From the NCBI GenBank assembly GCA_045601385.1, contig JAZRZM010000004.1:69351-133350 (forward strand): DNA of 64,000 nt, written 5' to 3'. Below the pieces are notes generated by a model, which was not told the DNA's origin, made no database searches, and saw nothing but the letters and a program-made list of their open reading frames with translations. The position numbers were made by a program, and so were the translations under genes. Position 1 is the first letter of the stretch; the number at the start of each line of letters is the position of its first letter. This DNA comes from Clostridia bacterium (GTDB lineage Bacteria > Bacillota > Clostridia > Christensenellales > DTU072). This document shows positions 1,633 through 64,000 of this stretch, one piece after another.

Positions 1633-1645
1633 AATTTATGCTCCT

Positions 1646-3725: not shown

Positions 3726-3728
3726 TTT

Positions 3729-37523: not shown

Positions 37524-37635
37524 GACGGAAACGGGCAAAAAGTCGGGAGGATTTGTGCGGTGAACGCGGTATGCGAAAGGCGGGGAAATTTCTCGTCTTT
37601 TTTGTTTATTAAATTAAACTAAAAATTTTTTTCCG

Positions 37636-37664
37636 TTGACTTCCTATTCGCGCGGGTGTATAAT
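37636..37664 (+). promoter_or_regulatory. Near-consensus sigma-A promoter upstream of the giant ORF
   Basis: TTGACT (37636-37641), exactly 17 nt, TATAAT (37659-37664). It sits about 100 nt upstream of ATG 37764. Confidence 0.65.
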
Positions 37665-37763
37665 GTACGTGATAAAAGGGGTGAAGTATGCCCTTTTTAC
37701 GAAAAACATATCGGCTTAACCGCCCCAAAGTAGGCTGAAAAGGGGCGGAAACGGAGATGAAGT

Positions 37764-37835
37764 ATGAAAAACAAGTATTTGAAATTTGCCATTCTGGTGT
37801 TGTGCCTTGTGCTCGCTTTTTGCGTGGCGGCTTGT
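37764..37835 (+). other. Lipoprotein signal peptide of the giant protein
   Basis: MKNKYLKFAILVLCLVLAFCVAAC: basic n-region, hydrophobic core, lipobox V-A-A-C with Cys at residue 24, followed by the acidic SEREEEQE. Confidence 0.75.
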
Positions 37836-40800
37836 TCCGAGCGTGAAGAAGAGCAGGAAATCGATATCGGCGGCGAGGACGTCGAACAGGAAGTCCTTTA
37901 CGAATCGACGAACAAAGCGGGCGCCTTTGCCGCGGTCAAGTCGGCGATGGCATATATGGAAGCGAGTACGGCGTACGACAGTCCGGACTGGTTTTCCGTC
38001 AGTACCGTCCTTAACTTTACTTACCATGCCTACAACCAAGCGTCTTCGGGAAAATATCTTCCCGACTCCGTGAAGAAAAAAGCCGAATTCAGCCTTTCCG
38101 TTCTTGCCAATATCAACCTTGTCGATAACAGCCGCAGCGTCGTCTTCCTCGAACTGAACGAGGCGGAGACGAGGTTTACCGTCTTCGGGCTGTATTACTA
38201 TCAGTCGGCGGTTTATCTGAACGTGTTCGGCAAAAAATATTATGCCGACGAACTGAATATGACGACGGTCGGAAACGCCTTGATGACCGCGCTTGCCATC
38301 GGTACCGAGGACGAAACCAATATCGTGCGTATCGGCGGCAACTTCTTCCAAGCCATCCTTCCGTCGATTATGATCGGCGCTATCGATCTGAACAGCGTCG
38401 CCGGTATCGCGTGGGATATTCTTTTCGAGTCGTACGGCATACGGTACAGCGAAGAAAAAGTCGATTATGAAGAACTGGTTGACGGCGTTAAGCAAACGGT
38501 GTCGAAACCGCGGTATATGTACGTGGAAGAGTTCTTCAAGTTGAACTGGCTCATGGACATGGTCTGCATGGGGAAAATCGAACTGCGCAGCATCGTCTCC
38601 ATCGATATCGGTTGGGAAGCGTTCGGCTTGCCGAATTTCGATCCGATCATGAAAGACATACTCGGATTCAACCTCCACGACATTATGACGAAAGACTGGC
38701 CGACGATGTCCTGTCCTTTCTACGCGGTGGCGGAACTGCAACCGGTAACGGAAGAAGGGGAAGGTTCTTCGGGCTACGCGTACGTGTTTAACGGCCTCGG
38801 TATCGGAGTCACCGCCGCCGACGGAGAATTCGACGTCAGACTGGAAATCACGCCTTTCCGTTTCGGGCCCGTTGCCGACGCGCAAATCAAGGAAAAAGGC
38901 GCGGAAATCGACCTTTCGGAGTATTCGGTCGGTACCGCCGGAAAGAATAAAGTTTACAGCAAAGGCAGTTTTGCCAATATCGAAGCGAATTTCCGCATGG
39001 GCGTGGAATCGCCCGAGGGCGATCGCATCACCGTGAGCGACATGCTCGGCGGTCTGCTCGATTTGGGCGGAATCGGCGAAATACCGATCGTTTTGCAGGA
39101 AGGCGCGTCGTACATATTCGACGTCAAACTCGCCGCCGCGCTTGACCTTTTTAACAACGCGGGCAACTTTTTGCAACTGACGTACCGATATAACCGAAAA
39201 GAGGTCTTGTCGGTATATCTCGCGCCCGAATTCGATCAGGTGACGATCGGGGATAAGACGTTCACGCCGACGTCCATTTATTTCGATACGTCGCATCTGA
39301 CAAGCGGCGGGGCGGAGTTTTTCCCGAATACCAAGCAGACGAATATTGACTTTACGGAGCGCGTTACGGGGCTCCTCGGTTCCGACTTGATGGCTTATCT
39401 CGATCCGTACGTCAGTTCTTCGGCGTCAAGGAACGCGGCGCAAAACGCCGACGGTGACGAAGAAGAGGGCGGACTCGACGTAATGGCGATCATCGCCATG
39501 CTGATCGAGCGGAACGAAAGCGGCGACGGGTATAAATATCTGGAATTGCCCAAACGGGACGGGGAACATTTTCTGAAAGTGCAATTCGACAATTCGGGGC
39601 TCAACCGCGTGTTGTCGATGATAATGCCGACGGTTCGTTTCGTTGACGACGGCGAAGAAGGCTTTTACGAAAACGGTATCGGTTTGAAAGGCGTTACGCT
39701 TTCGATCGACTTTACCCGTCCGTTCGATTCGATCGCGCTTACGGTCGATTTTACCGAAAACACCTCTATGTATGTGGGAATCGGCTCGCACAACGAAGAC
39801 GGTTCGTACAATACGGGACTTTCTTATTTTTCGCGTCCGGCGTTTGAAATGGAAGCGCTCGGGCTCAATTCTTCCTTGACGGTCGATAACAAGGATCAGG
39901 AAACCGCGGCGCGGGCTTTGCGCGGCGCGTACAGAGACCTGGATAAAAACCTGAGCTATACCGCGACGATGACCGGTTCGGTCAAAGTCGGTTCGCACGA
40001 CAATACGAGCATCAACCTCGACTCTTTGGTCGCGCTCGTGTCCGAGTCGCTGATCGCTTCTTTCGGAATCGCGACGGGCAGCGAAATGAATATCGGATAC
40101 GAATTGCAATTGGGCGTCGTTTTGACCGATATGAGCCAGACCGCGCTTATTCTTGACCTGTACTTTATGGACAAAGACAACGTCAGAGTCCACGCGCAGG
40201 CGCCGTTTGTGGAATTGTATTACCGTGGCGCGGCGGATACGCTGTACGTCAATACGCAAGTCGACCCCGATAACGATATGGTGTCGCAACTGCACGAATT
40301 TCTGAACGTAACCAACGTGCTGACCGGTTCGATTCCGAAGTTTGCCATCGACAACCTCGGTTTGAGCACGGCGCTCGGCGCGATCCGCCTGGATATAAGC
40401 GATTTGTATTCGGCGATCGGCGTCGTGACCGAAAAAGCGTCGAACGCGGCGTTTTATATCGGAAAAGACGCTTTGACGACGACCGAGAACAGCGATTATG
40501 TCGAAGTTATGCCAAGTAACGCCGGTCTGGACGTCATGTCTCTTATCGGGCAGGCAATCACGTCGGTTTCCGTCACGGACGGTCTGCTCGGCGTTATCGT
40601 CAACGAACAGGTCCTGAACGCCGTCATCACCATGCTGGATATCGGCATCAACGGCGGACTGCCCGGCATCAAAGCGAGCGTCGGACTGCAAATCGGTACC
40701 GAATATGCCAAGACGGAAACGGGCGAAACCTACTATAAGCAAACGAACGGTAATATCTATTATGTCAAGTTCGATCCCGAGCAGGAAAAAGAAATCGTCT

Positions 40801-43800
40801 ATGACGCCGACGGAAACGCGACCGAACTGCCGGTGACGAGTCTCGAACTCAACCCGGTGCTGAAAGACAAAGAGTTTGCCGAGGTTCATTTCGGCTTAAT
40901 CGACAGCAACGAGGGACTGGTCGAATCTTTCTATTTCAACTGGATTCTGATCGACACGATCAATATCACGAGGACCAATTCGGTTTCGCCGAAGGGCAGT
41001 TTCAGTACGACCGATTACGGCTCTTTCCAAGAATGGATCGACGCGCTGAACGTTTCTTTGAACGTGGAGACGGAATTTATTGTCAAAGCCAATGCCGAAC
41101 AGTTTGCCTGGGCGCAGGTGTATCAATTATTGACCGAAACGGGGCTTGCTTCCGGCATGAACTCCACGATTACGTCGGTGTTGCAAACGGCGGTTATCCG
41201 TTTGACAAGTACGCTGTTTGATTCGACGGACAGCGAAACGGCTCTCGGCGGTTTGCAAATCGGTCTTGCCGTCCGCGGCACCGCGTGCTTGCAGGACCTT
41301 TTCAAGAGCGAACTTGCGGTGGTTATCTTTGATAAACGCGTTCGTTCCGCCGGCGGATATACGGCGAACGACGGCATTTCTTATCAGGTGCTTTTGGGCG
41401 TTTACTTAAAAGACGGCGAAGGCATCCTCGATCTTACCTATTTTGACATCGACCTTTTGAAAATAAACGACGTCAAGAGCACGTATCAGGGCATTATTGC
41501 CGGTATGTGGGACTCGTACGTCAACGCCGGAAAATCGGACAGCGTTTCGCCCGAAAATCACTTTACGAGCGGTAACAACTTTGTCCGCGGCGTTATGCAA
41601 CAGGAGATCCTTTCCTACTTTTTCAGCGAACAGTACGACAAGTACAATCAGGGATATTTTGCCAAGACGTATTCGACGACGCGTTACAAATATATGACGT
41701 TGACCGACGGGTACATTTATTTGTACGAAACGTCTCGTTTGTCCGCATACTTTACCTATACCGCGGACGATAACGAACTCAGACTGCTCCCCAACTATTC
41801 GTACTATCTTATTTCTTCGGACGGGACGATCTCGGTTTACGAAGCCGGTCGTGCGGGCGCACGCGCTGAGATTACGCCTCTTATGCGTGACGGCGCATAC
41901 TATCGTATCGACGTATACGATATCGAAAACAAAATGCTTACCAACAACTACGGGCAGTCTTCGTATAACGAGGCGCTGTTTGACGCCATGCTGAAATCGG
42001 AAGCGTATTCCTTGTTCGATACGCGGCAGGAAAAATTCTCGCAAAACTGGAAAGCGACCTACAATAAGGCGTCCGAAGCGGTAAAAATTTATATGGACGA
42101 ACAAAAGCAGGCGACGATAGACGAACTGAAAAACTTCTTGACGCTTTCGTTCAAAGCGAGTGCCGATTATACGACGAGACTTGCCGACGTGGCGAGTGAG
42201 GCGGCGTACAAAACGCGTGAAACGTATCCGGCTTACGAATACACCACGTTGAGAGTGCTGCAAGCGACGGCGGAATATAAGCGCATTTATGCCGAAATGT
42301 CGGCGGAAATGGTCGAAGACGAGGTGAACGACTTATACAACAACTATAATCAAAGCCAGTTGTTCTCCTTCCTCGGTAGTTCCGGCGGTTCTCTCAGCGA
42401 CGACTATCTTAATGCCGTGACGTGGTACAGAATTTATCGCAACGCCGATATTTCTCCTATCGCCGTATACAACGCGGCGGTGTTCGACGTATACGAATAC
42501 TATGCGAAAAACGCGCCGATCGATATTCACGTCGCGTCCAACGCCGAAGTGTCCGACGCGGGCAAAATCGCTTTGCAAATGAATTATAACAAGGGCAGAA
42601 TCACCCTCGGCCTTGCCGAAGAAGTCATCAACGCGTTCTTCCTGACGCTGCATATCAACTTCGGCGGATACCGTGTTTTCCGTTCGTTTGACGCCGAGAT
42701 CGATTTGACCGACGGCGTGGGCGCGAGCGTTGCGATCAACATATTCGACGTGTATAACGTGTCCGTCGGTATCCTGTCCCTGCGCGCAAGTCTGGACGAA
42801 AACGACTCGACGTCTTACTATAAAGTGACGCTCCCGACCGACGAAAGCGGCGCGGCGGTGGAAGGTGTGCCGAGCGCGGTCAGAGTGAAGGCGGAAGCCT
42901 ATATCAATATGCTGAATAAACTGGCGACGAACAATACCGGAGAAGAGTCGATATACGACTTGTCCGATCTGTTGACCTTGCTTCTGACGAACTCCGAATT
43001 CGTCCTTGCCGATCTGAAAGACTACTATAAGAAAACGGAAAGTTCTTTTGCCGATACGAAGTCGGACGAAGCCGTCATCGCCATCAAGGCGACCGCGTTC
43101 AGGTCTTTGCAGGAAGAAACCGATACCCGTACGTCGGAAGCGAAGACAGCCGAACTTGAAAAATACGTGGCGCAGGCGTGGGAAGATATCGTTACCGGTT
43201 CTGCCGACGGTAAGTATAAAGGCGCGGCGGAATTCAGTAATCAGCACTATGCTCTTGCATGGGATAAACTGGAAGGTTCTTCCGTGCGTATCCATATGGA
43301 CGAATTGCAACTGGACGTTCTGCTCGAATTCTTGGAAGAAATGGACGACAGTCTGCATATTTATGCCGATTTGTGGTTTAATATGAACAATTTGTACGCA
43401 AGCAGCCTGAAAGTGACGGTGACCAAAGAAGTCCTCGGCGAATTCGAAGAGGCGGTTGCCGTTGACGAATTGCGTTACGATCCGACCGACATCAAACAGT
43501 ATTATATCGGACAGTCGATCCCCGAAGGGCGGTTCTATACCTTGTCCGACGGGAAATATACCCTGCACAAGAGCATAAACGAAAACACAAGAGAAACGTA
43601 CAAGTTTGCGGCGGGCGAAACGTATTATATCCGCAAAGAAGCGACCGTTCTTGCCGTATTATACGATGGCAGCGAAGTGACTTCGACGTCGGAGTTTGCC
43701 GGCAAAGTGTACCTGACGTCGGGTATCTTCGGACTCGGTAACGTCATGATGCAAGACGTCACCGGCGCGGTCGAATCGATATACAGCGCCCTCGATATTA

Positions 43801-55800: not shown

Positions 55801-58800
55801 ATCAGATTATCAGAAAGAACATGAAAGAACTGTTTGACGCATTCAAACAGGAACTGTCCAATCTGACTATCGACAAGTACAGCGACAAGGGATATTCGGC
55901 GACCGATTCGGCGGCGGAAGAACTCGTCAAGTACGGATACGAAGAAGCCGCGGGTTACTCGTCGCGTTCTTTGTACGGCTTATTCCGCGATTGGTTTGAA
56001 ACAAACGGTTATGAAGAGGCTTTCCACGAAATCATCTATAACGCCGTCTATAACGTCATTTCCGCCGAAGAAGCGGCGATTCTCAACAGAGCGTTCGCAG
56101 AGACGTTCGGTTCGAGAGAATTCCGCCTCGGCGATTATACGACGTGGATGAACACGTATCGCGAAGAGGAAGGGCAACAACTGCTTGCGTACTTTGAAGA
56201 CGTCGTGGGACAACTGAACACGGTTTACAGCGGCTACGATTCGGTTGCCACGCTGACGACCGTGATGGGCGCGCAATATACCGCGTTTACGAATGCGCTT
56301 GCGTCCTTACTTGTCAACAAATACAATTCCGTTTGGGCAAGCGAAAACGCCCTCGATCCGTCGACCTCGTTTGCGGGTGTGCTCGAAGCGATCGGCGCGC
56401 TGAACGCAGGCGTCTACAAAGCCGATTCGGGGCTCGTACGGTTTGCGCAACAAATCGGCGAATTGCCGCACGAAACGGCGGCGGAATTGCGCTCGGTCTG
56501 GGCAACAGTCATTAACGATATCGAGAACGCGGTGTTCTTTGTTCCGATGACAACCGCCATGCAACAGGCGTACGACGCCGTGATCGACGCGTACTACACC
56601 TTGCTCTTTACGGCAAAACCGGACGGAGACGGCGTCGCCGACTACTACGAGGAATTTGTCGCGGGCTATCTTGCCGGGTTGGATACGGCGAAAATCGAGG
56701 GCGACAAACTCTTTGCGCAATACGCTTCCGCAAGATACGCCGAGATTAGCGCTTACATGACGGGCTCCGTGGCGCTAATGGAAGACGCCGCCGCGTTTAT
56801 GGGCTCCAAGGCTGCTTTTGACGCGCTTTCGGCAACCCAAAAGATGAGAATCCTCATCGATTTGCAAACAAGAAACGCATACGGACTGAACGGCGTGACC
56901 AACGCCGTCAAAGGGGAATTCAACGTTTATTCCACGATGACTTCGATATACGAGTATCTTATTTACCGTTCCGAAGATTATGTGTCCGCGCTTGTCTGCG
57001 AATACGATCGTTTCCTTTCGGTGAGCGGCAATGTCGCTCTCCGTACCGCCGCCGGTCTTACCGATCCGGCTTTGAGTGCGTCCGACCGTGAAAAAGCGAC
57101 CTTTATCCTCGGTATCGCGCAGTATATCGACGGACATATCGAAGACGCCGTCGTGACCGAACAGTTGCACGCATGGTACGGAGACGCCGCGCAAGCACAG
57201 GACGCGAGAACGAGCCTGTTCTATCTGCTACATTGTGTTTCCGAACCCGAAACGTATATGAACCTTGCCCTTTGGACGAGATACTTCGGTAGTGACAGAG
57301 AGTATTATACCGAAGAAAGCGTCACCGTGACGGCAAACGATCCGATTCCCGAAGAAGAGGGCGTTTGGTATGTCAAAAACGGCGATACGGGACTCGAAAC
57401 GGCGACGGGTTCGTTCAGCGGCTCGGCTTATAAGAAGTTTACGCGCGTTACGTCGTATACCGTTCTGCCCTCGACCTACTATGTCCTTTGTGATGGGTTT
57501 ATGGCGGTCGCGGCGGGTACGCCGGTTCAATCGGGAGCGTCTTATGCGACCTTTGCGCCCGTTTCGTTCGGTTTCTGCGAAGAAATTGACGGCGACGTGT
57601 ACGAACTCGCAGGCGGCGTTTATACCTTATCTATGGATAACTATGCCGACGGTAAGACCGTTTATTACCGTCTGACGCCTTCGGTACAGGGCGGATCGAA
57701 CGTCGCGGGAAGCAACGTTTACGTGAAAAAATCCTTCTTTGTCGAAGCGGACGAAGTATACTTCGCGTCTTACCGCGACGCATACTCGAAAGCGGAAAGC
57801 AAGTTTGCCGTTGTGTACAAAGTGGATAAAATCGATACGAACAGCACGGCGGAAGAGGTCGCGCGTCTTCTCAGAGATTTGACCTTTACCGACGACGGCG
57901 AAATTCTTGACGAATACGTCGGACTGCTCCGCGAGAACGCGTCCGAAGCGATGGGAACGTATCTGACCGATAAAAACGTAATTTCGCAGGCGATGTTTGC
58001 CGACTTCCTTGCCAAAGAAGAGAACGCAAAGACGGTCGCCGACCTGGGACTTTCTATCGGTATCCGCGGTCAGGATACGACGATCGGCGCGTACGACGCA
58101 AAATCGACGCCGACCGACGTAGTCACCAATCCGGACGACTTTGTCAACTTCGACGAAATGCAACTGTATCTGTCTTTCGGCGGATTTATGGAATTCGGTA
58201 TGGACGCCGGAAGAAGTAACGTCGTACCCCTTATCAACATGCTTTTCAGCGGACTGAATATGTCCGAAATCTATTTGGAATTCTTGTCCACCTCCGTGCT
58301 CGGCGGCAGTTTGCAAGCGGAATTTGCGCTCGATATGCAAAAAGCCCTCAGCGACGATTCGAACGAGGTAAAAGAATCGTTGACGGCAAGTCTGCTCATG
58401 AATTACGTATTGCTCCGTTACGATTCCACGGGCGAAGCGGGCAGATTCGAGCAGGCGATTATTTCCATCTATATCAGCGGCGGTTATGTATACGCCGGCG
58501 TCGAAATCTTCGATACCAATCTGAAAATCGCGCTCGAACTGGACGTCGTATCCCTCGTCCGCTCTTTGCTCGGACTTGCGCCGAGTGAAAGCGACAACGC
58601 CGCTGCGATCGAAAAGATCGTCGAAGTATTCGGTTCGGGAAGTAAACTGAACCCCTTTGCGCAACTTGCCGACGCCGCTTTGACGGGGAACCGGGCGGAA
58701 GGTTTGCAGGCGATACTCAGAATGAGCAGTTCGGAAGCGAGCCTCATTTTGTCGGTGGATATTCTGCTCGAAGCGATGCGCGTTATCGTCAAACTGATCC

Positions 58801-61800
58801 GCGGTACCGACGATCCTTCCGAATCGACCACCGTCGCGTTTGTCAATTCCGATAACTTCGTCGACTTTGTCAACATGGTCTTTACGCAAGGCGATCTGAC
58901 GATCGAATACGGCAACGACTTCGGCTTGCTTCTTAATATCGATAACAATAAGAAACTGGGCGGAACGGGCGACAACCTCGCTTATTCGTTTACGTTCGGC
59001 TTATTGAACGATACCAAGTTCTCGATGGGATCGGCAAACGATCAAAGAGAGGACTTCTTCGACGTCTTTACTCGGAATATCGGCGAAAAAGAAGGACAAG
59101 GCTTCTTCGACGACTATTACCGCTCTTCGTTCAGCGTCCGCGACCTTATCAACGGCAACGTGCCCGAGAACTACGGCGTTTCGGAAATGCTGACCGACGT
59201 CCTCGGTACCCGTCTGCAAGTCAACCTTTCTCTTACGATGTCGAGCGAAGTATTGAAGACGGTCATCGATTGGAGCCGTCTGTTCGACGCGATGAAGACG
59301 GAAGGCGTGGAAGCGTACTTCTTTATGAAGATGATGGATAACGCGTCGGGCGACATTCGTCTGGAAATCAGCGCCGATATCGATATCAGCGATATTTATT
59401 TCGACGTCAGATTGAGCGGTTATAACAGCGACAACGTCAATATCTTTAACATTTACGAAATGAGCGGTTACTTGAACACCGACGAAGCGCAACAGATGAA
59501 CCCGGTCTTCTACTTCGATATGGGCGAAGTCGGCGACGAAAAGTACTACGTCGACGGGACGCAATTCTATGAATTCCTCGACGTCAACGTCATTTACGTA
59601 TTTTTGAGCCTGTTCGGCAGTACGACCGCCACCAACTACGATAACTATATCAAGCGGTTGATGAACGTAGACAGTTCCAATGCGAGCGGCATCATGGGCA
59701 GCGACTCGGCGACCGACATATCGGAAATCGACTTCGGCAAGGTGTTCGACAGTCTTGCGATCGGCGAAAAAACGCTCGGTATCCGTCTCAGTTCCGCCGC
59801 GGTCAATACGATCATCGAATTGCTTGACAGCGACTGGACGTTCTGCGATATCGGTAATATCGCGGTAGACATCGACTTTGTCGATAACTCGATCGCCCTT
59901 ACTTTCCCGCTCGACGTCGCCGTACAGGACGAAGACGGCAATACGCTCAGCGACAGTAAGGTGTCCTACGGTATGAAGATCGGCGGACTCGATATACACA
60001 TCGGCGAAGCGGTGGACTTCCTCGGTGACGGACAGAGTATTCAAAAGAAGTTCCGCGGTTACGAAGAGATCACGGATTATGTCTGGATATCCGAAGTCAA
60101 CAGCCGTTTTGTCATTAACGACGACTTCAATACCCTCATCGATCTTTCCAACGTGACCAGCGGTCTTGTCGAAGGGTTTGAAATGCAACTGCAAAGCAAC
60201 GAAGATCAACTCGACCTCGAACTTGACTTCGTACTGCGTACCGAAGTGAACTTCTCCGACTTGTCGGCGCTTTCGCTCGAACTGCTTATCAAGAGCAAAG
60301 CGGGCAACGTAATTCTCGGTATAACGTTCGAGGGCGCGTACAACGACGGTACGATTTATCTCGATCTGAGCGGTCTCGGCTATCCGCAGGTGTACCTGTC
60401 GAATATCGATCTCGGACACTATCTGAAAAACATGCTCGGCGGTATTCTGAACGGGCTGACGACGGGATCGGACGACGAAGCGTCAAGCGGCGCGTTCAAC
60501 GCAAGCGGCTCTACCGACAATCCGATCGGCGCGGACGCGCAAAAGGCGTATCAATACAATTCGATCAAGGACGCCGACTTTACCGCCAACGTTTTGTTCC
60601 TGCTTTATACGCAAGATATTTTCAACGTGGCGATAACCGGTTCGCTTATCTATACGCTACTCGATTACGTCATCGAAGTCCCCACGTTCGCCCCCGAATT
60701 CGCAAGTCTCGAAATCGGTTATGAAAAGGACGAAATCTCCGGTATTCGTATCGTTATCGACGATCATAAACAGTTTAATCTGAATTACAGTTTCCGTAAG
60801 AGTTTCTCGTATATGGCGCCGATTTCGAAAATCAAGACGAACAGCAACACCGAATACGACGACGCGCGCACGCACAGTATCAGTTACTCTTCGGACAAGA
60901 AGACGTACTTTGCCGGATTTACCGCAATCGACAATATCAAGAACGTCTTCCTCGGACTCAATCTCGAAGTCATCATCAACACGATGGACGACGAAGGACA
61001 TAAGAGCGACGTTATCGTCGGATTTGAAAACATGCTTGAAGAAATGCTCGGCATGGCGGAAGGTTCGGTCGATTTGCAATGCCAGGATACCTATATGAAA
61101 CTGGACGTTTCGTTGCAGGTAGCCATCGATTTGAGAGACTTTACGAAGTCGGTCATTCTGATCGACATCATGTATCAGGACGAGACGTTCCTCGGCGTAT
61201 ATTACGTTGACGGCGGCACCTATATCGATCTCGGCGCGCTCGGGCTGTTCCGCGCGAACGCAAACGGCGTCAACCTCGGCGCGTTCCTGAACGGCATGGT
61301 GGGCGACGCACTCGGCGGCATGGGCATTACGCTCGACGGCGAAAAAGGTCTGGACGTACGCGGACTTGTTCAGGATATTCTGAGTCTTACCGCCGAAAGC
61401 CCGACCGAAACGCAGACGAAAACGGAGGAGCCCGACAAGACGAACGTTCTGCTCCTTGCCGAACGCGACCGTCTGATCGCGCAGTATACCGCCAACGCGC
61501 AGAACGGCATGTATGACGACCTCGACGCAAACGAAGAAAACCTGTTCAAAGAAGAGGTTCGCGTCGCGTTGGAAGCGTTGAGCGCCGCTTATCCGGGTGA
61601 AATGACAAACGAGATGTACGCAAGCACGCAAAAAGCCGTATATGCGGCGGCGGGCGTGCGGAACGAAGCGCAACTTGTCGAAGAGAAGACGCCCGCGGCG
61701 ATTCGCCTTAACCTCCTTCTTTATAACGACTCGGTCACGATTTCTCCCGAACTCGCCGGAATAGGCGACCTCCTCGGCATGAATCTGCCCGAACTGAATT

Positions 61801-64000
61801 CCATCGTTATTTCGTCCAACAACTTCAATAACATTTCCGTTACCGTAAAACTGGACGAAAGTAACCGTATTTCGATTGCCATTCCCGAAAACGGGCTTGC
61901 CCTGAAATTCAATATCGGCGTCGGACAAGGCGTCAATAAGAAAGACAAGTCCTTCTTCGAGGTTGCCGAACTTAACATCCCCGATCTTAACGAATTCGGC
62001 GGACTGAACGGCATCTTTATGGCGGAAAGCGGTCTGAAATTGGAGACGAACGACCTCGTCAACGCGATTATCGACAACCTGTGGGTGGACGGTCTGACGT
62101 TGAGTCTGGAAAGCCGCACCGACTATTGGAACAGAAAGGATCTGTACTCCTGGTATCCGAAAGTCAACGCCGATACGGGTCCGTTCTCGTACGCCGACGA
62201 CGACGCAGGGTACGACGGTACCGACGCGGAGATGTTCTCCAATATCATCAAAGCCATCAATATCATTATCGAAGCGGTCAAACTGATTGTGGCAATCGCG
62301 AAACTCGCTTCCTGGAACCCGTCCGGGTTATTGGATCTATATGACACAATCAAAGGTTTGTACGACGGTATCAAGAGTATAACGGGGCAACTGGATTCTT
62401 CTTATCTGAACTACCCGAAACTGCACCGTAATACGTATTCGAGAGCCAAACTCGTCGTACAAAAGACGAACAGCAACGTAATCGACGCCGTGCTGACGGC
62501 ACCGTCGTACAAGAGCGGCAAGGGCGATATTTCGGCACACGTGGAGCACCACTTCTTAGCGGTGGCGGTCACGTGCGAACTGTCTCTCAATCTGTTCGGG
62601 CTGTTCACGCTTGACTTCGGGACCATCCTCGGTGGAAAACTGCTCGGGACGCTCCTTGCCAAGGACAATATTAAAGCCGATCCCGGACCGTCCTTTGAAA
62701 GTAACGGTCTGATTCTGCCCGTCACGCTTTTCCCGGATAACATGATGGAGACGGCGCAAGAGACCGTTCAAGGTATGGGCGCGGTCGGACGTATGTACGG
62801 TACCGTACACGACACAGAGGGCAATCCCATACCGGGCGCAACCGTGACTTACACGGCGACGAGCGCGGAAAGTCTGTTATTGGGACAGACCGATAGCGAA
62901 AGCAAGGCGATATATCAGGCCGTCACCGATAAGGACGGACGGTATTACTTCCTCGAAATCGAAGTGACCGCGCACGCCGATATCGGCGATAAATATCTCA
63001 TTCGCACGCTGGATAAGGCGCTGTTGCAACACCTTAACGCGGTGCAAAACACGACGACCTGGACGGGCGACAAAAGCGATAGCGACCTGAACGAACAAGC
63101 GACCGAACTTCGCGAAGAATTGGAACGCGGTATCGACCTCGGAACGGGAAGAAAACTGAAACTCGAAGCGGGCCCCGCTTTCGAAGGCGTTTATCCCGAC
63201 GGAAAAACCTATACCGGCGCGTACAGTAACGGACTGAAAGCGGACGACTTTGTGTTCGATTACGGCGGTGTAAAATATCGCTATCTGGGTAACGGATATT
63301 ATTACTACGAAAACGCGAAAGGTACCCTGAACGTGTCGAAAGCCGGTTACAGCACCGACAGCCGTGACGGTATCATTATTACGCCGAAAGAGGGTAATCT
63401 TGCGAGAATGTACGACTGCATTTTGCAAGACTGCCGCGAAAGCGGTTCGCAGGACATTCTGCTTACCGGTATGACGGTCGCTTCGTGGAAAAACAGCGAA
63501 AGCGATTATTCCTCCCTTTCGACGGCGGAACTTCGCTCCAAACTGACTTCGCTTTCCAAAAACGATAAGATAGGCGACGTCAAGATTATTTACAATCAAG
63601 GCGAACAGGTTGCGTACAGCGGAAGCGAAGACGAATTCCGCGGGTTGTTCGGCTTTAATCTGACCGAATATACCGCAGTGCGTCAGGCGGTCAACGCGGG
63701 GACGGCGGGACGGAATATGTACCATTCGTTTGATATCAAAGCGGACGGTTATGAAAAACGCGGCTTTGTCGTTCATTACGAAGCGCCGGGAACGGACAGT
63801 TGGCGTTACTATAATTCGAGCGATATGCAAGGCGTCGATACGAGAATAAAAGAAATCTGCGAACTTGACGGAACGGATAAAGTCAATATCACGATGTACG
63901 TCATTCTGAAAAAGAGCGCCGCAACCCAATTAAAGATAACGGGCAACGTGTTTACGTACGAAGAAGTCGCCGTTCTGCCCAAGTCCGCGGTGGACGGAGA
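37764..64000 (+). CDS. Giant orphan lipoprotein, 3'-partial (at least 8,745 codons in window)
   Basis: ATG 37764 is preceded by an in-frame TGA (37758-37760) and GGAG (37753-37756). I read the frame by eye and spot-checked it at 46020, 53040, 62880, 63921 and 63960, and it stays open to nt 64000. The track lists no plus frame-0 ORF here, which is expected only if the ORF has no in-window stop. All long minus-strand ORFs are codon-aligned antisense to it. Confidence 0.9.
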   Translation, partial: MKNKYLKFAILVLCLVLAFCVAACSEREEEQEIDIGGEDVEQEVLYESTNKAGAFAAVKSAMAYMEASTAYDSPDWFSVSTVLNFTYHAYNQASSGKYLPDSVKKKAEFSLSVLANINLVDNSRSVVFLELNEAETRFTVFGLYYYQSAVYLNVFGKKYYADELNMTTVGNALMTALAIGTEDETNIVRIGGNFFQAILPSIMIGAIDLNSVAGIAWDILFESYGIRYSEEKVDYEELVDGVKQTVSKPRYMYVEEFFKLNWLMDMVCMGKIELRSIVSIDIGWEAFGLPNFDPIMKDILGFNLHDIMTKDWPTMSCPFYAVAELQPVTEEGEGSSGYAYVFNGLGIGVTAADGEFDVRLEITPFRFGPVADAQIKEKGAEIDLSEYSVGTAGKNKVYSKGSFANIEANFRMGVESPEGDRITVSDMLGGLLDLGGIGEIPIVLQEGASYIFDVKLAAALDLFNNAGNFLQLTYRYNRKEVLSVYLAPEFDQVTIGDKTFTPTSIYFDTSHLTSGGAEFFPNTKQTNIDFTERVTGLLGSDLMAYLDPYVSSSASRNAAQNADGDEEEGGLDVMAIIAMLIERNESGDGYKYLELPKRDGEHFLKVQFDNSGLNRVLSMIMPTVRFVDDGEEGFYENGIGLKGVTLSIDFTRPFDSIALTVDFTENTSMYVGIGSHNEDGSYNTGLSYFSRPAFEMEALGLNSSLTVDNKDQETAARALRGAYRDLDKNLSYTATMTGSVKVGSHDNTSINLDSLVALVSESLIASFGIATGSEMNIGYELQLGVVLTDMSQTALILDLYFMDKDNVRVHAQAPFVELYYRGAADTLYVNTQVDPDNDMVSQLHEFLNVTNVLTGSIPKFAIDNLGLSTALGAIRLDISDLYSAIGVVTEKASNAAFYIGKDALTTTENSDYVEVMPSNAGLDVMSLIGQAITSVSVTDGLLGVIVNEQVLNAVITMLDIGINGGLPGIKASVGLQIGTEYAKTETGETYYKQTNGNIYYVKFDPEQEKEIVYDADGNATELPVTSLELNPVLKDKEFAEVHFGLIDSNEGLVESFYFNWILIDTINITRTNSVSPKGSFSTTDYGSFQEWIDALNVSLNVETEFIVKANAEQFAWAQVYQLLTETGLASGMNSTITSVLQTAVIRLTSTLFDSTDSETALGGLQIGLAVRGTACLQDLFKSELAVVIFDKRVRSAGGYTANDGISYQVLLGVYLKDGEGILDLTYFDIDLLKINDVKSTYQGIIAGMWDSYVNAGKSDSVSPENHFTSGNNFVRGVMQQEILSYFFSEQYDKYNQGYFAKTYSTTRYKYMTLTDGYIYLYETSRLSAYFTYTADDNELRLLPNYSYYLISSDGTISVYEAGRAGARAEITPLMRDGAYYRIDVYDIENKMLTNNYGQSSYNEALFDAMLKSEAYSLFDTRQEKFSQNWKATYNKASEAVKIYMDEQKQATIDELKNFLTLSFKASADYTTRLADVASEAAYKTRETYPAYEYTTLRVLQATAEYKRIYAEMSAEMVEDEVNDLYNNYNQSQLFSFLGSSGGSLSDDYLNAVTWYRIYRNADISPIAVYNAAVFDVYEYYAKNAPIDIHVASNAEVSDAGKIALQMNYNKGRITLGLAEEVINAFFLTLHINFGGYRVFRSFDAEIDLTDGVGASVAINIFDVYNVSVGILSLRASLDENDSTSYYKVTLPTDESGAAVEGVPSAVRVKAEAYINMLNKLATNNTGEESIYDLSDLLTLLLTNSEFVLADLKDYYKKTESSFADTKSDEAVIAIKATAFRSLQEETDTRTSEAKTAELEKYVAQAWEDIVTGSADGKYKGAAEFSNQHYALAWDKLEGSSVRIHMDELQLDVLLEFLEEMDDSLHIYADLWFNMNNLYASSLKVTVTKEVLGEFEEAVAVDELRYDPTDIKQYYIGQSIPEGRFYTLSDGKYTLHKSINENTRETYKFAAGETYYIRKEATVLAVLYDGSEVTSTSEFAGKVYLTSGIFGLGNVMMQDVTGAVESIYSALDINFMSNISDTVRDFFGMAEKAQSAAPSNASSQNAATDLHTYLDILFNEKQFAVQLLKTSLITLVYVLADGDIADAIADLDFGLSVGIDYGENDFGLGVEVDFANNEIRAQNFREDESGKVQDTTAISLGVRGINVGFASDRNELAGVTTDLAVPETADGGEYITMEEFSKIGLALGGYLKIKMTETETDVDKPEGQADFNFDYAVNIFSRYWLERSLDLGFQADIPDYTDIEEEIYLDIKGNINLQTLSSLKDIGLYISMTSRSQREIYDLAYMRARREEMMKVLADCDNNYQEAWMTYSTMLRSGAQGGNTVDPIYKRLQYDYQTYLIMNDITKYLRTAYAGLTDEEYYEKYWNELYGQCGDYYLGDILGMYVELDKEGRGYIYIDLGFLNVEPIVIDDVSEVVKQVAKTFGIDWRTVFFPGELKAQNVAFGENNEVSVPSVGALCNAATDSDPFGVVANQILIALNTKQYQQFLLVSATSAAIYSVFSVLGNSGTQKYFGDVQPSEDDDYYLPHYSPNLSVNLEDWDEQSETYKLVNVELALDNFLTFSLGIDNPTLDVARGAQFITVREKIIGEDNIYSDYYTSIDDLWVQKPEVKLNMEGQLLIAAQGENEDSEVSGTINLGKLIRSIVGDDFPIDVMIETLETIDADLFFTLEVKLNILKMLNTLTSLDAIGGVGDVFGLLNGMGLEAYIEITSREHDDSGLIVANNVLMGIYLIEEGPTTNRYLSLYIDFSVFHISPIKITNLASVGADLFENIEKIMSGGDAENAAGDLGKQERVMDMLRLYTGVTASEQAALFNAASDEEKAQAWDGKAVENYLLLTIGNGYGITMTAVAAVLVEVLDQLFNDDKNIATRAFEGMAEDRITASYKEQIDLLEGIAATMESLVEGSVEDAWDNLTADTAQYLTVEEKEKAQKVYRMITDSNYYGLTESEMKEMAWYAYYWDIVGVSYLQIIQIFGETNAQRFVNMTGFASKVSVSEDYAGRLEAVKYGAESSTLLDESTFAIAAEYADYYISAAAFDKLYWHVDGLVSVLIESKQTATQAGGTKKTEEINNDAFMLFRNNPNLSVEDKEAYTAVYENYRRTAATDIIAGSKAWEQAYNEITAMQDALLAAMKYTNNYAVSSLGLEIQPFLLVADKYDVSNEYTAVSVIVGQNVPNGLYYKSGEEYVEATGLFVRDLQYYVKTFSPAWKAMAWDYLEKKGLIAEDTLTQYRLNERNRALRNARGTVVESNIYPYVWEKYVSEVSTATLNGTQDGYLVRKQTKYSVTLSGGEYSETHSDTLVDGMSVWYLETVDSVLPDVLTGANEDSYYTKAYSAMPELIIDTANGVGTVELGLFNEGNLLSLLLAVANFNIKIKFVQANIAFSNDKTGLIRKEYEIVSDDVGLSAEQEIVEESVSDYIAEKDEEGFFISIDSDFGYVYTKLELNFSFNADETSYDMGNLIQTVMSGFGGNFSINGYDISANVLIDILSEISKNYCLTIEARVNVFNLMKDIEKGLSTIDFAITLNPILSDGITVNYDDDIIQIVLGSLSESESFVFVDLSRFNIQKLYIRNAINYVRNLLMANNLGPAFFDPYGEESMAAIIEDVFLYSYFASAANAEEGDEEYVDLSVLLQERGLSTAIGSMAIFAFLDMLNMSALEDFLGASGDLGIDLAIFSLAEDINITADWDDSDRDLIRLGVSYDSLDANNVTSGNGISLDFSIHNMQLDLDQTKRILGVTVGDATEESEEIAEARQSLEEALGLTRNSEGDLVAIHKEDGKVYYTYYDEYKGQTIRTTDVDEADVARIAEIDDDLPNIVVHTTIYITANLKKLAGTDLNKSPISDLLDTFGSGLPVGSGLSDLLGSLMLYIADDHMVTFALDIDAEIELGNGQDSNYLAHIINGSVIRIRIRAWHTSDGQESDRVWATVTYQEGSLYVNATPINTDDGETPLKLVMYNVADMVFPSDAASVNAWTAIAEDWKAAVSGTSIGMNLNLEWKSTGFYALALRSAVVSLLNIFNLGGFDILPEIGAEVFIEANEIEDRFGVENDKVISFAIGVTAAIGETFYNNNDSSLLESGGLALTVGIRDFFVGFENFEEWGVTDGTSYVSIDELELVQVSTVLTMGLTDEEGRYTLAELLANVVDLASFGVTKEVYPMLDFMEDDSATLLVKVTARVNPSAFLDENGNLLDDLQAQIAISVQTDEGLRENIIVLSFVRGDVYIDLSKLNSSLGRVKIASVLDIVSSLTGSSAQGAGFPQDVRDTLLSIQEAFAGAENATQALSKAEVLNAVINLRFSGAQGLGLEVFYGSLYWFLKAFIDENIADTMELVAYVSNPSLSLGIDYNVDVKLNLNVPSTIYNDDELILLQQYMSQAKDYYGYNGLDVLLYNDIYKGYEEKTLNALREKLTISGLTYTYPDASVTSIGYATEILKKDFRLDLMQEVSEYVLINYPATDVIQTYKAALENAYDDLQNVWISGASGTDGTGYSTLKAVLLGMAHATATEKRAVLYALVDYMRAAAYDIKASSAYLTVAEDVIDAYDEMLSRYMSGEMSENTYYQGVLIPQVAAYGTKTTITVYDAVENIVRSTGLYKAVETTPSAEKVRDVNGWLDSALIVNGLTLRQWLTNLQSRYSYLDEDGCKVALFDMFAIELYSKPTKAEYGEYVDELYSMTDGKDQYAITDAIVAYYDDGKGFLADYLDEKFDYTANERIALQKLAAAYERGKVIVQDAWLVEIGKETSTTTTSEPPIEVHSAKYDEMMRSLKVKAWDAYRESMAEKSADERYTEGERNEAKRNYALSEFAYDNARIKVGEDDAELLKEAAFDNLQLYQSDYAAKLMESLVDGSTDGLLYTSWFEAVVYSYMDAATLTALADATFAANDPYAIRTILQSIPKSIREYNKTVGVMLTEVQEVALTYYLLTDTSEAYLFIAKNYSTPIETGKQTAVSMLQGVIDRVGKGFIDSLGKAILSGIVDEVNDATGTAYSVQSLTATEANEVVYAKYVGLIEKLFALTRAIDKGYDEWNISAESWDALVKGVDFDSYDNFDDFIAAAEAAIDAAADENLGYGVRKSSKDTKYFRTVMQDIYDIYKEQYATILSEGDEELNMLLAQLFDGAMTINAFAQKYDSSDANKQLQTATNIAYRIAGSALGSTAYPFTVNMYVYPAALAFAQTKRNGAQGTADAVVKATQYLNKAGTSDDSPVLDYFNNDILVYAVAYGALLADDHVADAVKRQAIEYYNLYTEEKYTVDSYKLTADAFDDLASSDYFVSGMSTANKALAKVVEYRYDILDGGLAFKNEVYRKAFELLLRYSASADRYEELQNVRNSVIFEYLYVNDEKTRVEMKDTITDAAQTVIAGIMKAISGEKSYYSADNIDIFMMLYDEFATAIGALYDNLKYDLDGANAVASLFETVKESLAQSVFEMKFTAEDYALAIDEVLAEREQGGVMHETTGVYKDIINTFIDAIECIADYAETLEYYAESMLDSYAGTTAADALVKAGYDDLLNYIRGVEAAYKGAVEQFVLDNYRSATHYSNKTVKQLIDNIAIPDAKSLLNTQWYNSEVYSIDSGLLKTESSQTLYYRSGSSVGEPNPPTPEGSEEISGTAKVTYVETYTVTMKVNVNAINYASVYGSSSLASIIGAQGVNLTGVKTYKKTTDTERVKDKKYYEKTAKEVTAKLVDQPIMSAMYVVNPGDATEYTQTSDLFYQDRQGYYYTFKTSNSTDMNSLYEVESHWIESEYAKTLTYQDGSTTMYSYAFKASAQNASSASQETSDNKDEAYAAEEAKWNDWVKSIRSGVVADLKGQYENDINNIITYIDGMKTKLNDYLSGITSAGLLASFADKIITSLNGWSYEKPEQKTLEVDARIPAGVYFEQKTVGADVFKTYEPTRDAVVSSGKIYYVKSPVSYSFGDENVKMQPLSDWIDYEAIGGLSFYKQYEQIEQMTYIAATSLTSDSGYNVGGDSVVTAKAVSGYLATLLEGKASAITPKEARSMLYLAYTDYKEGTGVSWMNNKFDITVGNQIIRKNMKELFDAFKQELSNLTIDKYSDKGYSATDSAAEELVKYGYEEAAGYSSRSLYGLFRDWFETNGYEEAFHEIIYNAVYNVISAEEAAILNRAFAETFGSREFRLGDYTTWMNTYREEEGQQLLAYFEDVVGQLNTVYSGYDSVATLTTVMGAQYTAFTNALASLLVNKYNSVWASENALDPSTSFAGVLEAIGALNAGVYKADSGLVRFAQQIGELPHETAAELRSVWATVINDIENAVFFVPMTTAMQQAYDAVIDAYYTLLFTAKPDGDGVADYYEEFVAGYLAGLDTAKIEGDKLFAQYASARYAEISAYMTGSVALMEDAAAFMGSKAAFDALSATQKMRILIDLQTRNAYGLNGVTNAVKGEFNVYSTMTSIYEYLIYRSEDYVSALVCEYDRFLSVSGNVALRTAAGLTDPALSASDREKATFILGIAQYIDGHIEDAVVTEQLHAWYGDAAQAQDARTSLFYLLHCVSEPETYMNLALWTRYFGSDREYYTEESVTVTANDPIPEEEGVWYVKNGDTGLETATGSFSGSAYKKFTRVTSYTVLPSTYYVLCDGFMAVAAGTPVQSGASYATFAPVSFGFCEEIDGDVYELAGGVYTLSMDNYADGKTVYYRLTPSVQGGSNVAGSNVYVKKSFFVEADEVYFASYRDAYSKAESKFAVVYKVDKIDTNSTAEEVARLLRDLTFTDDGEILDEYVGLLRENASEAMGTYLTDKNVISQAMFADFLAKEENAKTVADLGLSIGIRGQDTTIGAYDAKSTPTDVVTNPDDFVNFDEMQLYLSFGGFMEFGMDAGRSNVVPLINMLFSGLNMSEIYLEFLSTSVLGGSLQAEFALDMQKALSDDSNEVKESLTASLLMNYVLLRYDSTGEAGRFEQAIISIYISGGYVYAGVEIFDTNLKIALELDVVSLVRSLLGLAPSESDNAAAIEKIVEVFGSGSKLNPFAQLADAALTGNRAEGLQAILRMSSSEASLILSVDILLEAMRVIVKLIRGTDDPSESTTVAFVNSDNFVDFVNMVFTQGDLTIEYGNDFGLLLNIDNNKKLGGTGDNLAYSFTFGLLNDTKFSMGSANDQREDFFDVFTRNIGEKEGQGFFDDYYRSSFSVRDLINGNVPENYGVSEMLTDVLGTRLQVNLSLTMSSEVLKTVIDWSRLFDAMKTEGVEAYFFMKMMDNASGDIRLEISADIDISDIYFDVRLSGYNSDNVNIFNIYEMSGYLNTDEAQQMNPVFYFDMGEVGDEKYYVDGTQFYEFLDVNVIYVFLSLFGSTTATNYDNYIKRLMNVDSSNASGIMGSDSATDISEIDFGKVFDSLAIGEKTLGIRLSSAAVNTIIELLDSDWTFCDIGNIAVDIDFVDNSIALTFPLDVAVQDEDGNTLSDSKVSYGMKIGGLDIHIGEAVDFLGDGQSIQKKFRGYEEITDYVWISEVNSRFVINDDFNTLIDLSNVTSGLVEGFEMQLQSNEDQLDLELDFVLRTEVNFSDLSALSLELLIKSKAGNVILGITFEGAYNDGTIYLDLSGLGYPQVYLSNIDLGHYLKNMLGGILNGLTTGSDDEASSGAFNASGSTDNPIGADAQKAYQYNSIKDADFTANVLFLLYTQDIFNVAITGSLIYTLLDYVIEVPTFAPEFASLEIGYEKDEISGIRIVIDDHKQFNLNYSFRKSFSYMAPISKIKTNSNTEYDDARTHSISYSSDKKTYFAGFTAIDNIKNVFLGLNLEVIINTMDDEGHKSDVIVGFENMLEEMLGMAEGSVDLQCQDTYMKLDVSLQVAIDLRDFTKSVILIDIMYQDETFLGVYYVDGGTYIDLGALGLFRANANGVNLGAFLNGMVGDALGGMGITLDGEKGLDVRGLVQDILSLTAESPTETQTKTEEPDKTNVLLLAERDRLIAQYTANAQNGMYDDLDANEENLFKEEVRVALEALSAAYPGEMTNEMYASTQKAVYAAAGVRNEAQLVEEKTPAAIRLNLLLYNDSVTISPELAGIGDLLGMNLPELNSIVISSNNFNNISVTVKLDESNRISIAIPENGLALKFNIGVGQGVNKKDKSFFEVAELNIPDLNEFGGLNGIFMAESGLKLETNDLVNAIIDNLWVDGLTLSLESRTDYWNRKDLYSWYPKVNADTGPFSYADDDAGYDGTDAEMFSNIIKAINIIIEAVKLIVAIAKLASWNPSGLLDLYDTIKGLYDGIKSITGQLDSSYLNYPKLHRNTYSRAKLVVQKTNSNVIDAVLTAPSYKSGKGDISAHVEHHFLAVAVTCELSLNLFGLFTLDFGTILGGKLLGTLLAKDNIKADPGPSFESNGLILPVTLFPDNMMETAQETVQGMGAVGRMYGTVHDTEGNPIPGATVTYTATSAESLLLGQTDSESKAIYQAVTDKDGRYYFLEIEVTAHADIGDKYLIRTLDKALLQHLNAVQNTTTWTGDKSDSDLNEQATELREELERGIDLGTGRKLKLEAGPAFEGVYPDGKTYTGAYSNGLKADDFVFDYGGVKYRYLGNGYYYYENAKGTLNVSKAGYSTDSRDGIIITPKEGNLARMYDCILQDCRESGSQDILLTGMTVASWKNSESDYSSLSTAELRSKLTSLSKNDKIGDVKIIYNQGEQVAYSGSEDEFRGLFGFNLTEYTAVRQAVNAGTAGRNMYHSFDIKADGYEKRGFVVHYEAPGTDSWRYYNSSDMQGVDTRIKEICELDGTDKVNITMYVILKKSAATQLKITGNVFTYEEVAVLPKSAVDG
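62787..62970 (+). other. Carboxypeptidase-regulatory-like / Cna-B-like beta-sandwich domain within the giant protein
   Basis: GRMYGTVHDTEGNPIPGATVTYTA......LGQTDSES......VTDKDGRYYFLEIEV matches the G.V.D..G.PI.GA.V........TD..G.Y.F..L pattern of CarboxypepD_reg-type domains. Confidence 0.55.

Follow-up and report, generated by a model that had tools for sequence, protein, structure and literature searches.

What kind of protein is encoded by a bacterial reading frame that continues for thousands of codons without a stop and then leaves the available sequence? The question is raised by a 64,000-nt stretch of DNA from Clostridia bacterium (Christensenellales; DTU072; assembly GCA_045601385.1, contig JAZRZM010000004.1, positions 69,351-133,350, forward strand), hereafter the window, whose plus strand carries a giant open reading frame (ORF; codons 1-8745, 37764..63998) that is cut by the window end and accounts for 966 kDa of protein so far. 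Sequence comparisons indicate that this gene founds or joins an undescribed family of predicted lipoproteins of 7,000-12,000 residues; in the literature we found no description of such a giant lipoprotein family. Its members are organized around an ancient array of 14 diverged modules, and we propose, with moderate confidence, that the product is a lipid-anchored rod projecting a C-terminal β-sandwich binding region.

The frame opens at ATG 37764, behind an in-frame TGA (37758-37760, the closest in-frame stop on the 5' side) and a Shine-Dalgarno GGAG (37753..37756, + strand) placed 7 nt before the start codon, and contains no stop in 8,745 codons down to 63998. Given the region's own base composition, for which one stop is expected per 21.6 codons, the log10 probability of such a run is -180.5, and the two remaining plus-strand frames over the same region hold 343 and 234 stops. 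The gene is missing from the list of ORFs, the last plus-strand entry of which ends at 37523, because ORFs running off the source receive no listing. Its codon usage closely follows that of 14 neighboring housekeeping genes (relative synonymous codon usage r = 0.91; GC content at third codon positions 0.65 vs 0.61), and the codon log-odds, uniform along the length, stand at +0.445 in the reading frame and at -0.48 and -0.51 when it is shifted. There are no DNA repeats longer than 42 nt or above 84% identity in the gene, and hence nothing repetitive to mislead an assembler. The original prediction, an earlier reading of the same DNA, had described the open frame with its upstream TGA and GGAG, the absence from the ORF track as the mark of a gene running off the window, and a codon style native to the genome, and each of these points stands. 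Because of the open frame, the codon statistics, the lack of DNA repeats and a terminator/promoter boundary on its 5' side (see below), we conclude that this is a real, native, separately transcribed gene cut off at the window end. Sixteen ORFs of 157-796 aa lie antisense to it (37716-63929, - strand). The two that were tested have codon log-odds of ~0.04, compared with +0.445 for the giant frame, and on the showing of these two the antisense ORFs are non-coding shadows of its codon bias. Gene callers unable to emit partial genes might output such shadows in place of the giant gene.

The product had been taken for an orphan, but this does not hold. Searched exhaustively with a profile, 1.84 billion cluster representatives yielded 50 relatives, of which 29 had E <= 1e-30. 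Five are complete proteins encoded inside contigs with flanking genes, namely P0009 (7,826 aa), P0012 (7,809 aa), P0014 (7,376 aa), P0025 (7,267 aa) and P0010 (7,125 aa). A pattern scan of GTDB genomes added three loci at 34-35% identity, in an uncultured Christensenella sp. (CAZUJW010000004.1), Christensenella sp. UBA6420 (DJPE01000068.1) and the uncultured Clostridiales bacterium RUG11213 (CACXFJ010000047.1), all metagenome-assembled genomes (MAGs), in each of which the frame has no stop over at least 4,533 codons, up to the point where the fetched DNA stops. With 3 of 185,579 species yielding a hit, the family appears rare and patchy, and it is so far confined to uncultured Clostridia related to Christensenella from habitats of the gut, rumen and digester type. 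A word-indexed search with aa 7546-8745 returned no homolog, and one with aa 1-1200 returned a single 1,063-aa fragment (35% identity) and none of the MAG-encoded copies; such giant genes are under-represented in protein catalogs.

Alignment of the window protein with the MAG genes extends collinearly over about 4,100 residues, with identities of 28-45% in 200-aa bins; the overall identity of the window protein to the named homologs is 23-35%. The five complete homologs share with it the lipobox, the 14 modules in the same order, a post-module connector and a CarboxypepD_reg domain, and are collinear with it throughout but for three gaps; they are compact, with their modules held in about 4,100 aa, whereas the window protein and the Christensenella-MAG genes bear large insertions. 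None of these homologs bears a protein name, and their modules belong to no Pfam family. Identity among the three MAG genes is 87-91%, and the ratio of nonsynonymous to synonymous substitution rates computed among them, that is, in a sister lineage of the window gene, is 0.10-0.15 for the full comparison and stays within 0.11-0.19 across all 500-codon bins. The low value in every bin implies that the whole length, insertions included, is under purifying selection. One further locus (L012, JGI24502J29692_10076993) has a frame that opens only about 570 codons before module 14 and then stays open for 4,034 codons, as far as the contig reaches; a truncated paralog, a frameshifted copy or a sequencing error could account for this.

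These comparisons also bear on whether the frame stems from a chimeric assembly or is a pseudogene in decay. Its 3' end is missing, and public protein collections yielded no relative more than about 45% identical to the product, as might be expected of an artefact. However, an accidental open frame has a log10 probability of -180, its collinearity with independent assemblies extends over thousands of residues, the sister lineage is under purifying selection, and the coding statistics are uniform in a sequence devoid of misleading repeats. We regard an artefact or dead gene as essentially excluded.

At the N-terminus, MKNKYLKFAILVLCLVLAFCVAAC|S conforms to the G+LPP pattern of Gram-positive lipoproteins, with a predicted signal peptide (37764..37835, + strand) ending in the lipobox V-A-A-C, the Cys of which, at residue 24, would be the lipidated N-terminus of the mature protein. 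A strict G+LPP match is present in 25 of 54 family sequences, and the other members that retain their N-terminus show A-C-S/T after a hydrophobic run, indicating that the lipobox is kept across the homologs. The signal peptide is the sole transmembrane-like segment of the window protein. The protein is markedly acidic and contains little Cys (Cys 0.25%, Tyr 6.2%, Asp 7.8%; isoelectric point 4.3; net charge about -661), as is typical of extracellular proteins. Both the lipoprotein signal and this composition had been noted from the sequence at the outset, and the proposal built on them, of a megaprotein exported via Sec/Lgt/Lsp and tethered to the membrane at the cell surface, agrees with all our findings.

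The internal organization of the protein becomes apparent only at the profile level. Self-comparison by BLASTP (E<1e-3) gives the self-match alone, but weak off-diagonal signals appear in profile-profile comparisons of 300-aa tiles, and an iterated profile seeded with aa 4086-4262 converged on a module of ~170 aa ending in G-x-x-Y-x-D-L-S-x-L-G. With the family included in the profile, exactly 14 modules are detected in the window protein and in each of P0009, P0010, P0012, P0014 and P0025. The original prediction was right that no repeats are obvious at the protein or DNA level, but its description of the protein as largely non-repetitive has to be abandoned: genuine lack of repetition is confined to three lineage-specific insertions of about 3,700 aa in all. 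All modules lie on the plus strand. Module 1 (38007..38333, aa 82-190) finds its best match in module 1 of P0009 and is followed by modules 2 (38946..39557, aa 395-598), 3 (39882..40412, aa 707-883) and 4 (40974..41540, aa 1071-1259). Beyond the first insertion come modules 5 (43236..43835, aa 1825-2024), 6 (44244..45044, aa 2161-2427, with an internal insertion) and 7 (45504..46115, aa 2581-2784), and beyond the second, modules 8 (47997..48533, aa 3412-3590), 9 (49134..49652, aa 3791-3963) and 10 (50019..50549, aa 4086-4262, the profile seed). The third insertion precedes modules 11 (58107..58625, aa 6782-6954), 12 (59127..59687, aa 7122-7308), 13 (60012..60491, aa 7417-7576) and 14 (60891..61337, aa 7710-7858), the last being the best conserved, with the ending Y-x-D-L-x-x-L-G-L-F.

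The modules are 13-17% identical among one another and 27-31% identical to their orthologs. The best match of a module is the same-numbered one for 13 of the 14 window modules against P0009, and for 14 of 14 when P0009 is compared with P0014. These positional best matches imply that the 14-fold duplication is older than the family and that the copies have not undergone concerted evolution. A distant lipobox-bearing relative of 3,198 aa (L013, OFGN01001580.1) has at least 6 copies, so that 14 marks the main clade, not every relative, and 'mini' versions exist. In compact members the module period is about 290 aa. By a crude measure, the modules have a hydrophobic periodicity of the β-type. Inspection by eye shows, behind most modules, a short linker that is acidic or rich in Gly and contains an N-A-[A/S/G] motif, and next to it an amphipathic helix of the 'L-D-V-M-x-L-I' type (e.g., aa 557-575, 2033-2050, 2455-2465, 2775-2785, 3610-3620, 6940-6950, 7300-7315 and 7570-7590).

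The modules of the window protein span 7,858 aa as against about 4,100 aa in the compact members because of the three insertions, which follow modules 4, 7 and 10. All three are rich in Tyr (7-9%) and Ala (11-12%) and poor in Pro. Insertion 1 (41541..43235, + strand, aa 1260-1824, 565 aa; Tyr 9.0%, Ala 11.0%) is absent from the compact homologs and recurs in the Christensenella-MAG genes (L001) and in a further relative, P0002, while insertion 2 (46116..47996, + strand, aa 2785-3411, 627 aa) is common only to the L001-type relatives, the MAG genes included. Insertion 3 (50550..58106, + strand, aa 4263-6781, 2,519 aa; Tyr 8.2%, Ala 11.9%) is absent from the compact members, and the fetched MAG sequence stops before its position; a word-based search of 5.8 billion clusters found no homolog of it within the sensitivity of that method. 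By the same crude measure as above, insertions 2 and 3 (the latter for the most part) show an α-type hydrophobic periodicity, the reverse of the modules, and insertion 1 is mixed. No internal repeats were found in the insertions.

Downstream of module 14, a connector (61338..62795, + strand, aa 7859-8344) is collinear with that of the homologs, including a 'KRNDYW' block, apart from a window-specific amphipathic helix insertion at aa 8160-8183. It leads into a predicted prealbumin-like β-sandwich of the CarboxypepD_reg family (62796..62960, + strand, near aa 8,345), which scores below threshold in the window protein (E 4.8e-6, 27.3 bits vs a 32.3-bit cut-off) and at 69-105 bits at the aligned position in the homologs. 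Pfam also gives β-sandwich signals of the Big_1, Big_4 and SdrD_B type just after module 14. Across the family, one or more such prealbumin-like domains precede some 3,000 aa of conserved C-terminal sequence that is not repeated and shows scattered Ig-like signals. The start of a C-terminal β-rich region follows (62961..63998, + strand), with the frame still open at the window end. As aa 8338-8665 are collinear with the region after CarboxypepD_reg in the compact homologs (hhalign probability 95%), residue 8,745 of the window protein corresponds to about residue 4,760 of P0009, which runs about 3,070 aa further. Collinear extrapolation from P0009 would then give the full window gene product a length of probably about 11,700 aa and a mass of >1.2 MDa, which, to our knowledge, would rank among the largest bacterial proteins. 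In attempts to extend the sequence, JGI metagenomes yielded no exact copy of a 60-mer taken at the window end, and there was no exact record of the protein encoded next to the giant gene on its 5' side, a HAD hydrolase; a module-14 pattern scan recovered compact-type relatives only, and the connector alignment was too divergent to serve as a query.

That the C-terminus of the window gene lies outside the window leaves room for a delivery platform, with a toxin or enzyme carried beyond the window end, much as in contact-dependent inhibition proteins or polymorphic toxins. A link to cell-wall degradation has been reported for giant proteins of predatory Omnitrophota (bioRxiv 10.1101/2023.11.21.568195). 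However, across their C-terminal 3,300 aa the compact proteins are collinear and mutually conserved, with no variable tips and no internal repeats; Pfam and PDB searches of these regions gave nothing beyond weak Big_1/Big_4 signals, with no toxin, peptidase or glycosidase. Further, what lies downstream of the complete homologs varies between loci, with no conserved small partner gene, and RHS/YD, Fil_haemagg and hemolysin-type Ca-binding repeats have no Pfam or NCBIfam match in the window protein. We accordingly rate effector delivery as very unlikely.

The modules themselves defy assignment by sequence. On both halves of the window protein, Pfam, NCBIfam, PHROGs and PADLOC gave a single sub-threshold CarboxypepD_reg/Big_1 match, and in a sequence search of the PDB neither these halves nor the module profile, the window tail or the C-terminus of P0009 gave a significant match. 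The earlier estimate that more than 95% of the product belongs to no known family is therefore borne out. Nor is it a member of any characterized family of adhesins or of nonribosomal peptide or polyketide synthases: Pfam finds no Ig-like, cadherin, SdrD_B or other known stalk domains across aa 1-8,340, and condensation, adenylation, ketosynthase, acyltransferase and carrier-protein domains of nonribosomal peptide and polyketide synthases have no match in Pfam or NCBIfam. With 0 families at E <= 0.01 in PHROGs and PADLOC, the protein is unlikely to be a phage structural or anti-phage defense component.

Structure prediction, which the original prediction had advised, took us somewhat further. 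An AlphaFold2 (AF2) model of aa 1-1200 from a 2-sequence alignment was useless (pLDDT 30), but a 33-row alignment (A5), combining orthologs of modules 13-14 with in-phase non-overlapping module pairs from six proteins, yielded a model of aa 7410-7900 at pLDDT 72.5 and pTM 0.58. This two-module fragment, 491 of the 8,745 residues, is the part of the protein modeled with confidence. The predicted unit is an antiparallel meander with strands of 13-17 residues, as seen in module 13, followed by a ~20-residue helix and then a second, shorter meander with helices; the inter-module linker (model residues 159-175) is at low confidence. Foldseek searches with this model found no match at E <= 0.001 in the PDB or BFVD. 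The best weak matches are to LolA-family lipoprotein carriers (E 0.018-0.17, prob 0.5-0.63; e.g., 8cgm_A, E 0.018, prob 0.60, and 4mxt, prob 0.63, TM-score 0.40 per target), with TM-scores of 0.13-0.19 per query and root-mean-square deviations of 14-18 Å, followed by porins and the hot-dog dehydratase domains of polyketide synthases, all of which are large curved antiparallel sheets. The module fold is either new or too far from known folds to be placed by one medium-confidence model.

The weak LolA-like matches raise the prospect of an envelope-spanning conduit, with 14 LolA-like open β-barrels stacked into a hydrophobic groove of fixed length as a Gram-positive analog of TamB, YhdP and VPS13, through which lipids, lipoglycans or other hydrophobic molecules would pass from the membrane out to the surface of the cell or to a partner cell. 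Bridge-like transfer proteins are built of units that are fixed in number, conserved by position and not homogenized, unlike the stalks of adhesins, and the present modules share all three properties. The lipobox-anchored N-terminus, the strands of 13-17 residues in meanders followed by a helix, and the non-significant matches to LolA-family carriers and other curved antiparallel sheets are likewise compatible with a conduit. On the other hand, none of the 50 Foldseek matches listed is a TamB-, VPS13- or ATG2-type entry, AsmA, TamB, YhdP, Chorein_N and the LolA clan have no Pfam match, and the module profile aligns by hhalign with E. coli TamB and LolA at probabilities of just 0.07% and 0.17%. 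Christensenella-type Clostridia are, as far as is known, single-membrane cells, and a host of this type, which we assume from the record titles of the relatives, would offer no second membrane to bridge; moreover, the huge acidic insertions and the 3,000-aa β-sandwich tail would be unexpected in a simple conduit. On balance, we consider a conduit improbable. A bolder version would see in the modules a new soluble open-barrel repeat forming a membrane-anchored hydrophobic conduit in a single-membrane Clostridium, leading for example to partner methanogens, with the insertions as an added functional layer. Christensenellaceae have been reported to associate with methanogens, though we would give this version only a slender chance.

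In the reading that we prefer, that of a lipid-anchored rod, the giant protein would be exported by Sec and processed by Lgt/Lsp at Cys24, so that its N-terminus would be held in the outer leaflet of the cytoplasmic membrane. The 14-module array would then make up a fixed-length rod reaching through the wall and beyond it, and the free C-terminal β-sandwich region, farthest from the anchor, might bind a polysaccharide, a host surface or another cell. Several points weigh against this proposal. Neither experiment nor homology points to any ligand or to adhesion, no adhesive tip domain is recognized in the window protein or the complete homologs, and more than 95% of the protein matches nothing known. 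The C-terminal part, presumably the business end, lies beyond the window, and the confident model covers one two-module fragment only. Fibrillar adhesins classically have stalks of near-identical repeats in variable number, whereas the fixed count, the 13-17% identity and the positional conservation seen here look more like a defined machine or ruler. It is this departure from adhesin stalks, in both the fixed number and the individuality of the modules, that keeps the conduit and a spacer alive as alternatives.

As a spacer, the protein would be a structural scaffold of the envelope, a fixed-length spacer or sheath of an S-layer-like or wall-organizing kind, with its acidic surface binding cations or wall polymers. 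The conserved count and order of the modules, the net charge of about -661 and the uniform purifying selection along the whole length would suit such a part. A hint of glycan or wall chemistry may also lie in the gene neighborhoods of the homologs: in four of five compact lineages (L004, L005/L006, L008, L009/L010), genes for a transglutaminase-core protein (~950-1,000 aa), an unknown protein, a ROK protein and a PIG-L deacetylase lie directly upstream. However, this cluster moves together with housekeeping synteny and is missing at the P0014 locus, in L001 and in the window. In addition, neither the window protein nor the complete homologs have LPXTG, SLH, LysM, SH3b, CWB2 or other wall-binding domains by Pfam, the homologs' C-termini show neither an LPXTG motif nor a hydrophobic anchor, and a family detected by the pattern scan in 3 of 185,579 GTDB species is hardly an essential envelope component. 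A scaffold therefore seems to us unlikely.

The 5' boundary of the giant gene carries candidate transcription signals. An intrinsic-terminator-like hairpin with a T-run (37575..37601, + strand) closes the upstream HAD hydrolase gene, which implies that the giant gene is set apart as its own transcription unit. Beyond it lies a sigma-70-type promoter-like site, TTGACT-17-TATAAT (37636..37664, + strand; 11 of 12 consensus matches), ~100 nt before the start codon, which is proposed from the consensus match, with 0.3 such sites expected in shuffled sequence. Between this site and the ribosome-binding site, the predicted 5' untranslated region contains a hairpin (CCGCCCC-15 nt-GGGGCGG, 37720..37748); having no T-run, it is not a typical terminator and could be a regulatory or stabilizing element. 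No Rfam family matches anywhere in the window.

The HAD hydrolase adjoins the giant gene both in the window (36780-37523) and in the P0002 contig (L016 266-1060), though in opposite relative orientations; the two enzymes are 43% identical, and both end in the identical, strikingly conserved 17-residue C-terminal tail YKAFYDDLKNTNKTEDW. Directly 5' of the giant gene, the window encodes DnaD/DnaB_2, DnaI-like and SLOG proteins along with this hydrolase, and the remainder is ordinary chromosome with the his operon, seryl-tRNA synthetase, argG/argH, an amino-acid ABC transporter and an M20 peptidase. The presence of DnaD and DnaI is a pointer to Bacillota. Genes for other large surface-type proteins lie close by, namely those for a BspA leucine-rich-repeat protein in the window and RCC1/Big_2 and transglutaminase/Big_2 proteins at homolog loci; a 2,046-aa RCC1/WD40_RLD/Big_2 protein lies directly downstream of the giant gene at L004 and L005/L006 only. 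The window's BspA-type protein (354 aa) is followed by a 581-aa protein with no Pfam match and a 597-aa MFS_2 transporter (24857-29453, + strand); given their overlapping stops and starts, the three genes look like one operon of surface or transport proteins. A 1,115-aa ORF at 30317-33664 (- strand), abundant in coiled-coil-like sequence and with no Pfam match, has the strongest coding signal of the window (log-odds 0.56), and the four plus-strand ORFs (177-386 aa) overlapping it are shadows. In the his operon (976-8179), a 514-aa ORF (6635-8179, - strand) carries a HisZ-like domain (tRNA-synt_His) at aa 9-291 and HisG at aa 356-507, such that the regulatory and catalytic subunits of ATP phosphoribosyltransferase appear to be fused.

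How, then, does this protein relate to known systems? With the bridge-like lipid-transfer proteins (TamB/YhdP; VPS13/ATG2) it shares N-terminal membrane anchoring, as predicted from the lipobox, and a fixed number of non-identical β-meander units with a helix or loop, repeated in a manner invisible to BLAST; it differs from them in the absence of sequence or significant structural similarity, in its presumed single-membrane host and in its β-sandwich tail and acidic insertions. Carriers of the LolA/LolB fold, which are antiparallel open barrels with helices, resemble the two-module model only at the level of the weak matches described above (E 0.018-0.17; hhalign 0.17%), with no LolA-clan match in Pfam. 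Closer in kind are Giant1-5 of Apilactobacillus kunkeei, another member of the Bacillota, which are single extracellular-protein genes of 3,000-8,000 codons with highly imperfect repeats, an atypical composition, an elongated predicted shape and a function proposed from structure prediction only (PMC12863079). Those proteins, however, combine a Sec/SPI signal with an N-terminal β-solenoid, mostly α-helical arrays of 13-51 repeats and C-terminal DUF5776/SH3b-like wall-binding domains that hold them by the C-terminus (PMC12863079), whereas the window protein, to which no sequence relationship was detected, would have an N-terminal lipid anchor, 14 β-meander modules and a free C-terminus. The giants of Omnitrophota and gut Clostridia reported by West-Roberts et al. 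are also metagenomic genes of >7,000 codons, mostly unannotated and proposed to act at the cell surface (bioRxiv 10.1101/2023.11.21.568195). As described there, the Omnitrophota proteins have numerous transmembrane regions and, in most cases, SecA DEAD-like domains, and those of Clostridia have RCC1, Listeria-Bacteroides, YG and leucine-rich repeats and dockerin; the window protein has one signal peptide, no transmembrane segment besides it and not one of the domains listed.

The giant surface proteins with which it is compared are built from recognizable repeats, whereas this one is almost wholly unannotated, and its design is unusual in joining a predicted lipid-anchored N-terminus with 14 ancient modules, each conserved yet mutually unrecognizable, and about 3,700 aa of insertions. 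The questions that it raises are what fold the modules adopt, why there are exactly 14 of them, and whether the array serves as a ruler, a stalk or a conduit, in gut, rumen and digester-type communities where contact between cells and with substrates shapes ecology. There is a modest chance that it represents a categorically different system, i.e., a conduit, but among known systems it is best filed as a giant bacterial cell-surface protein, a known kind, with an unrecognized module.

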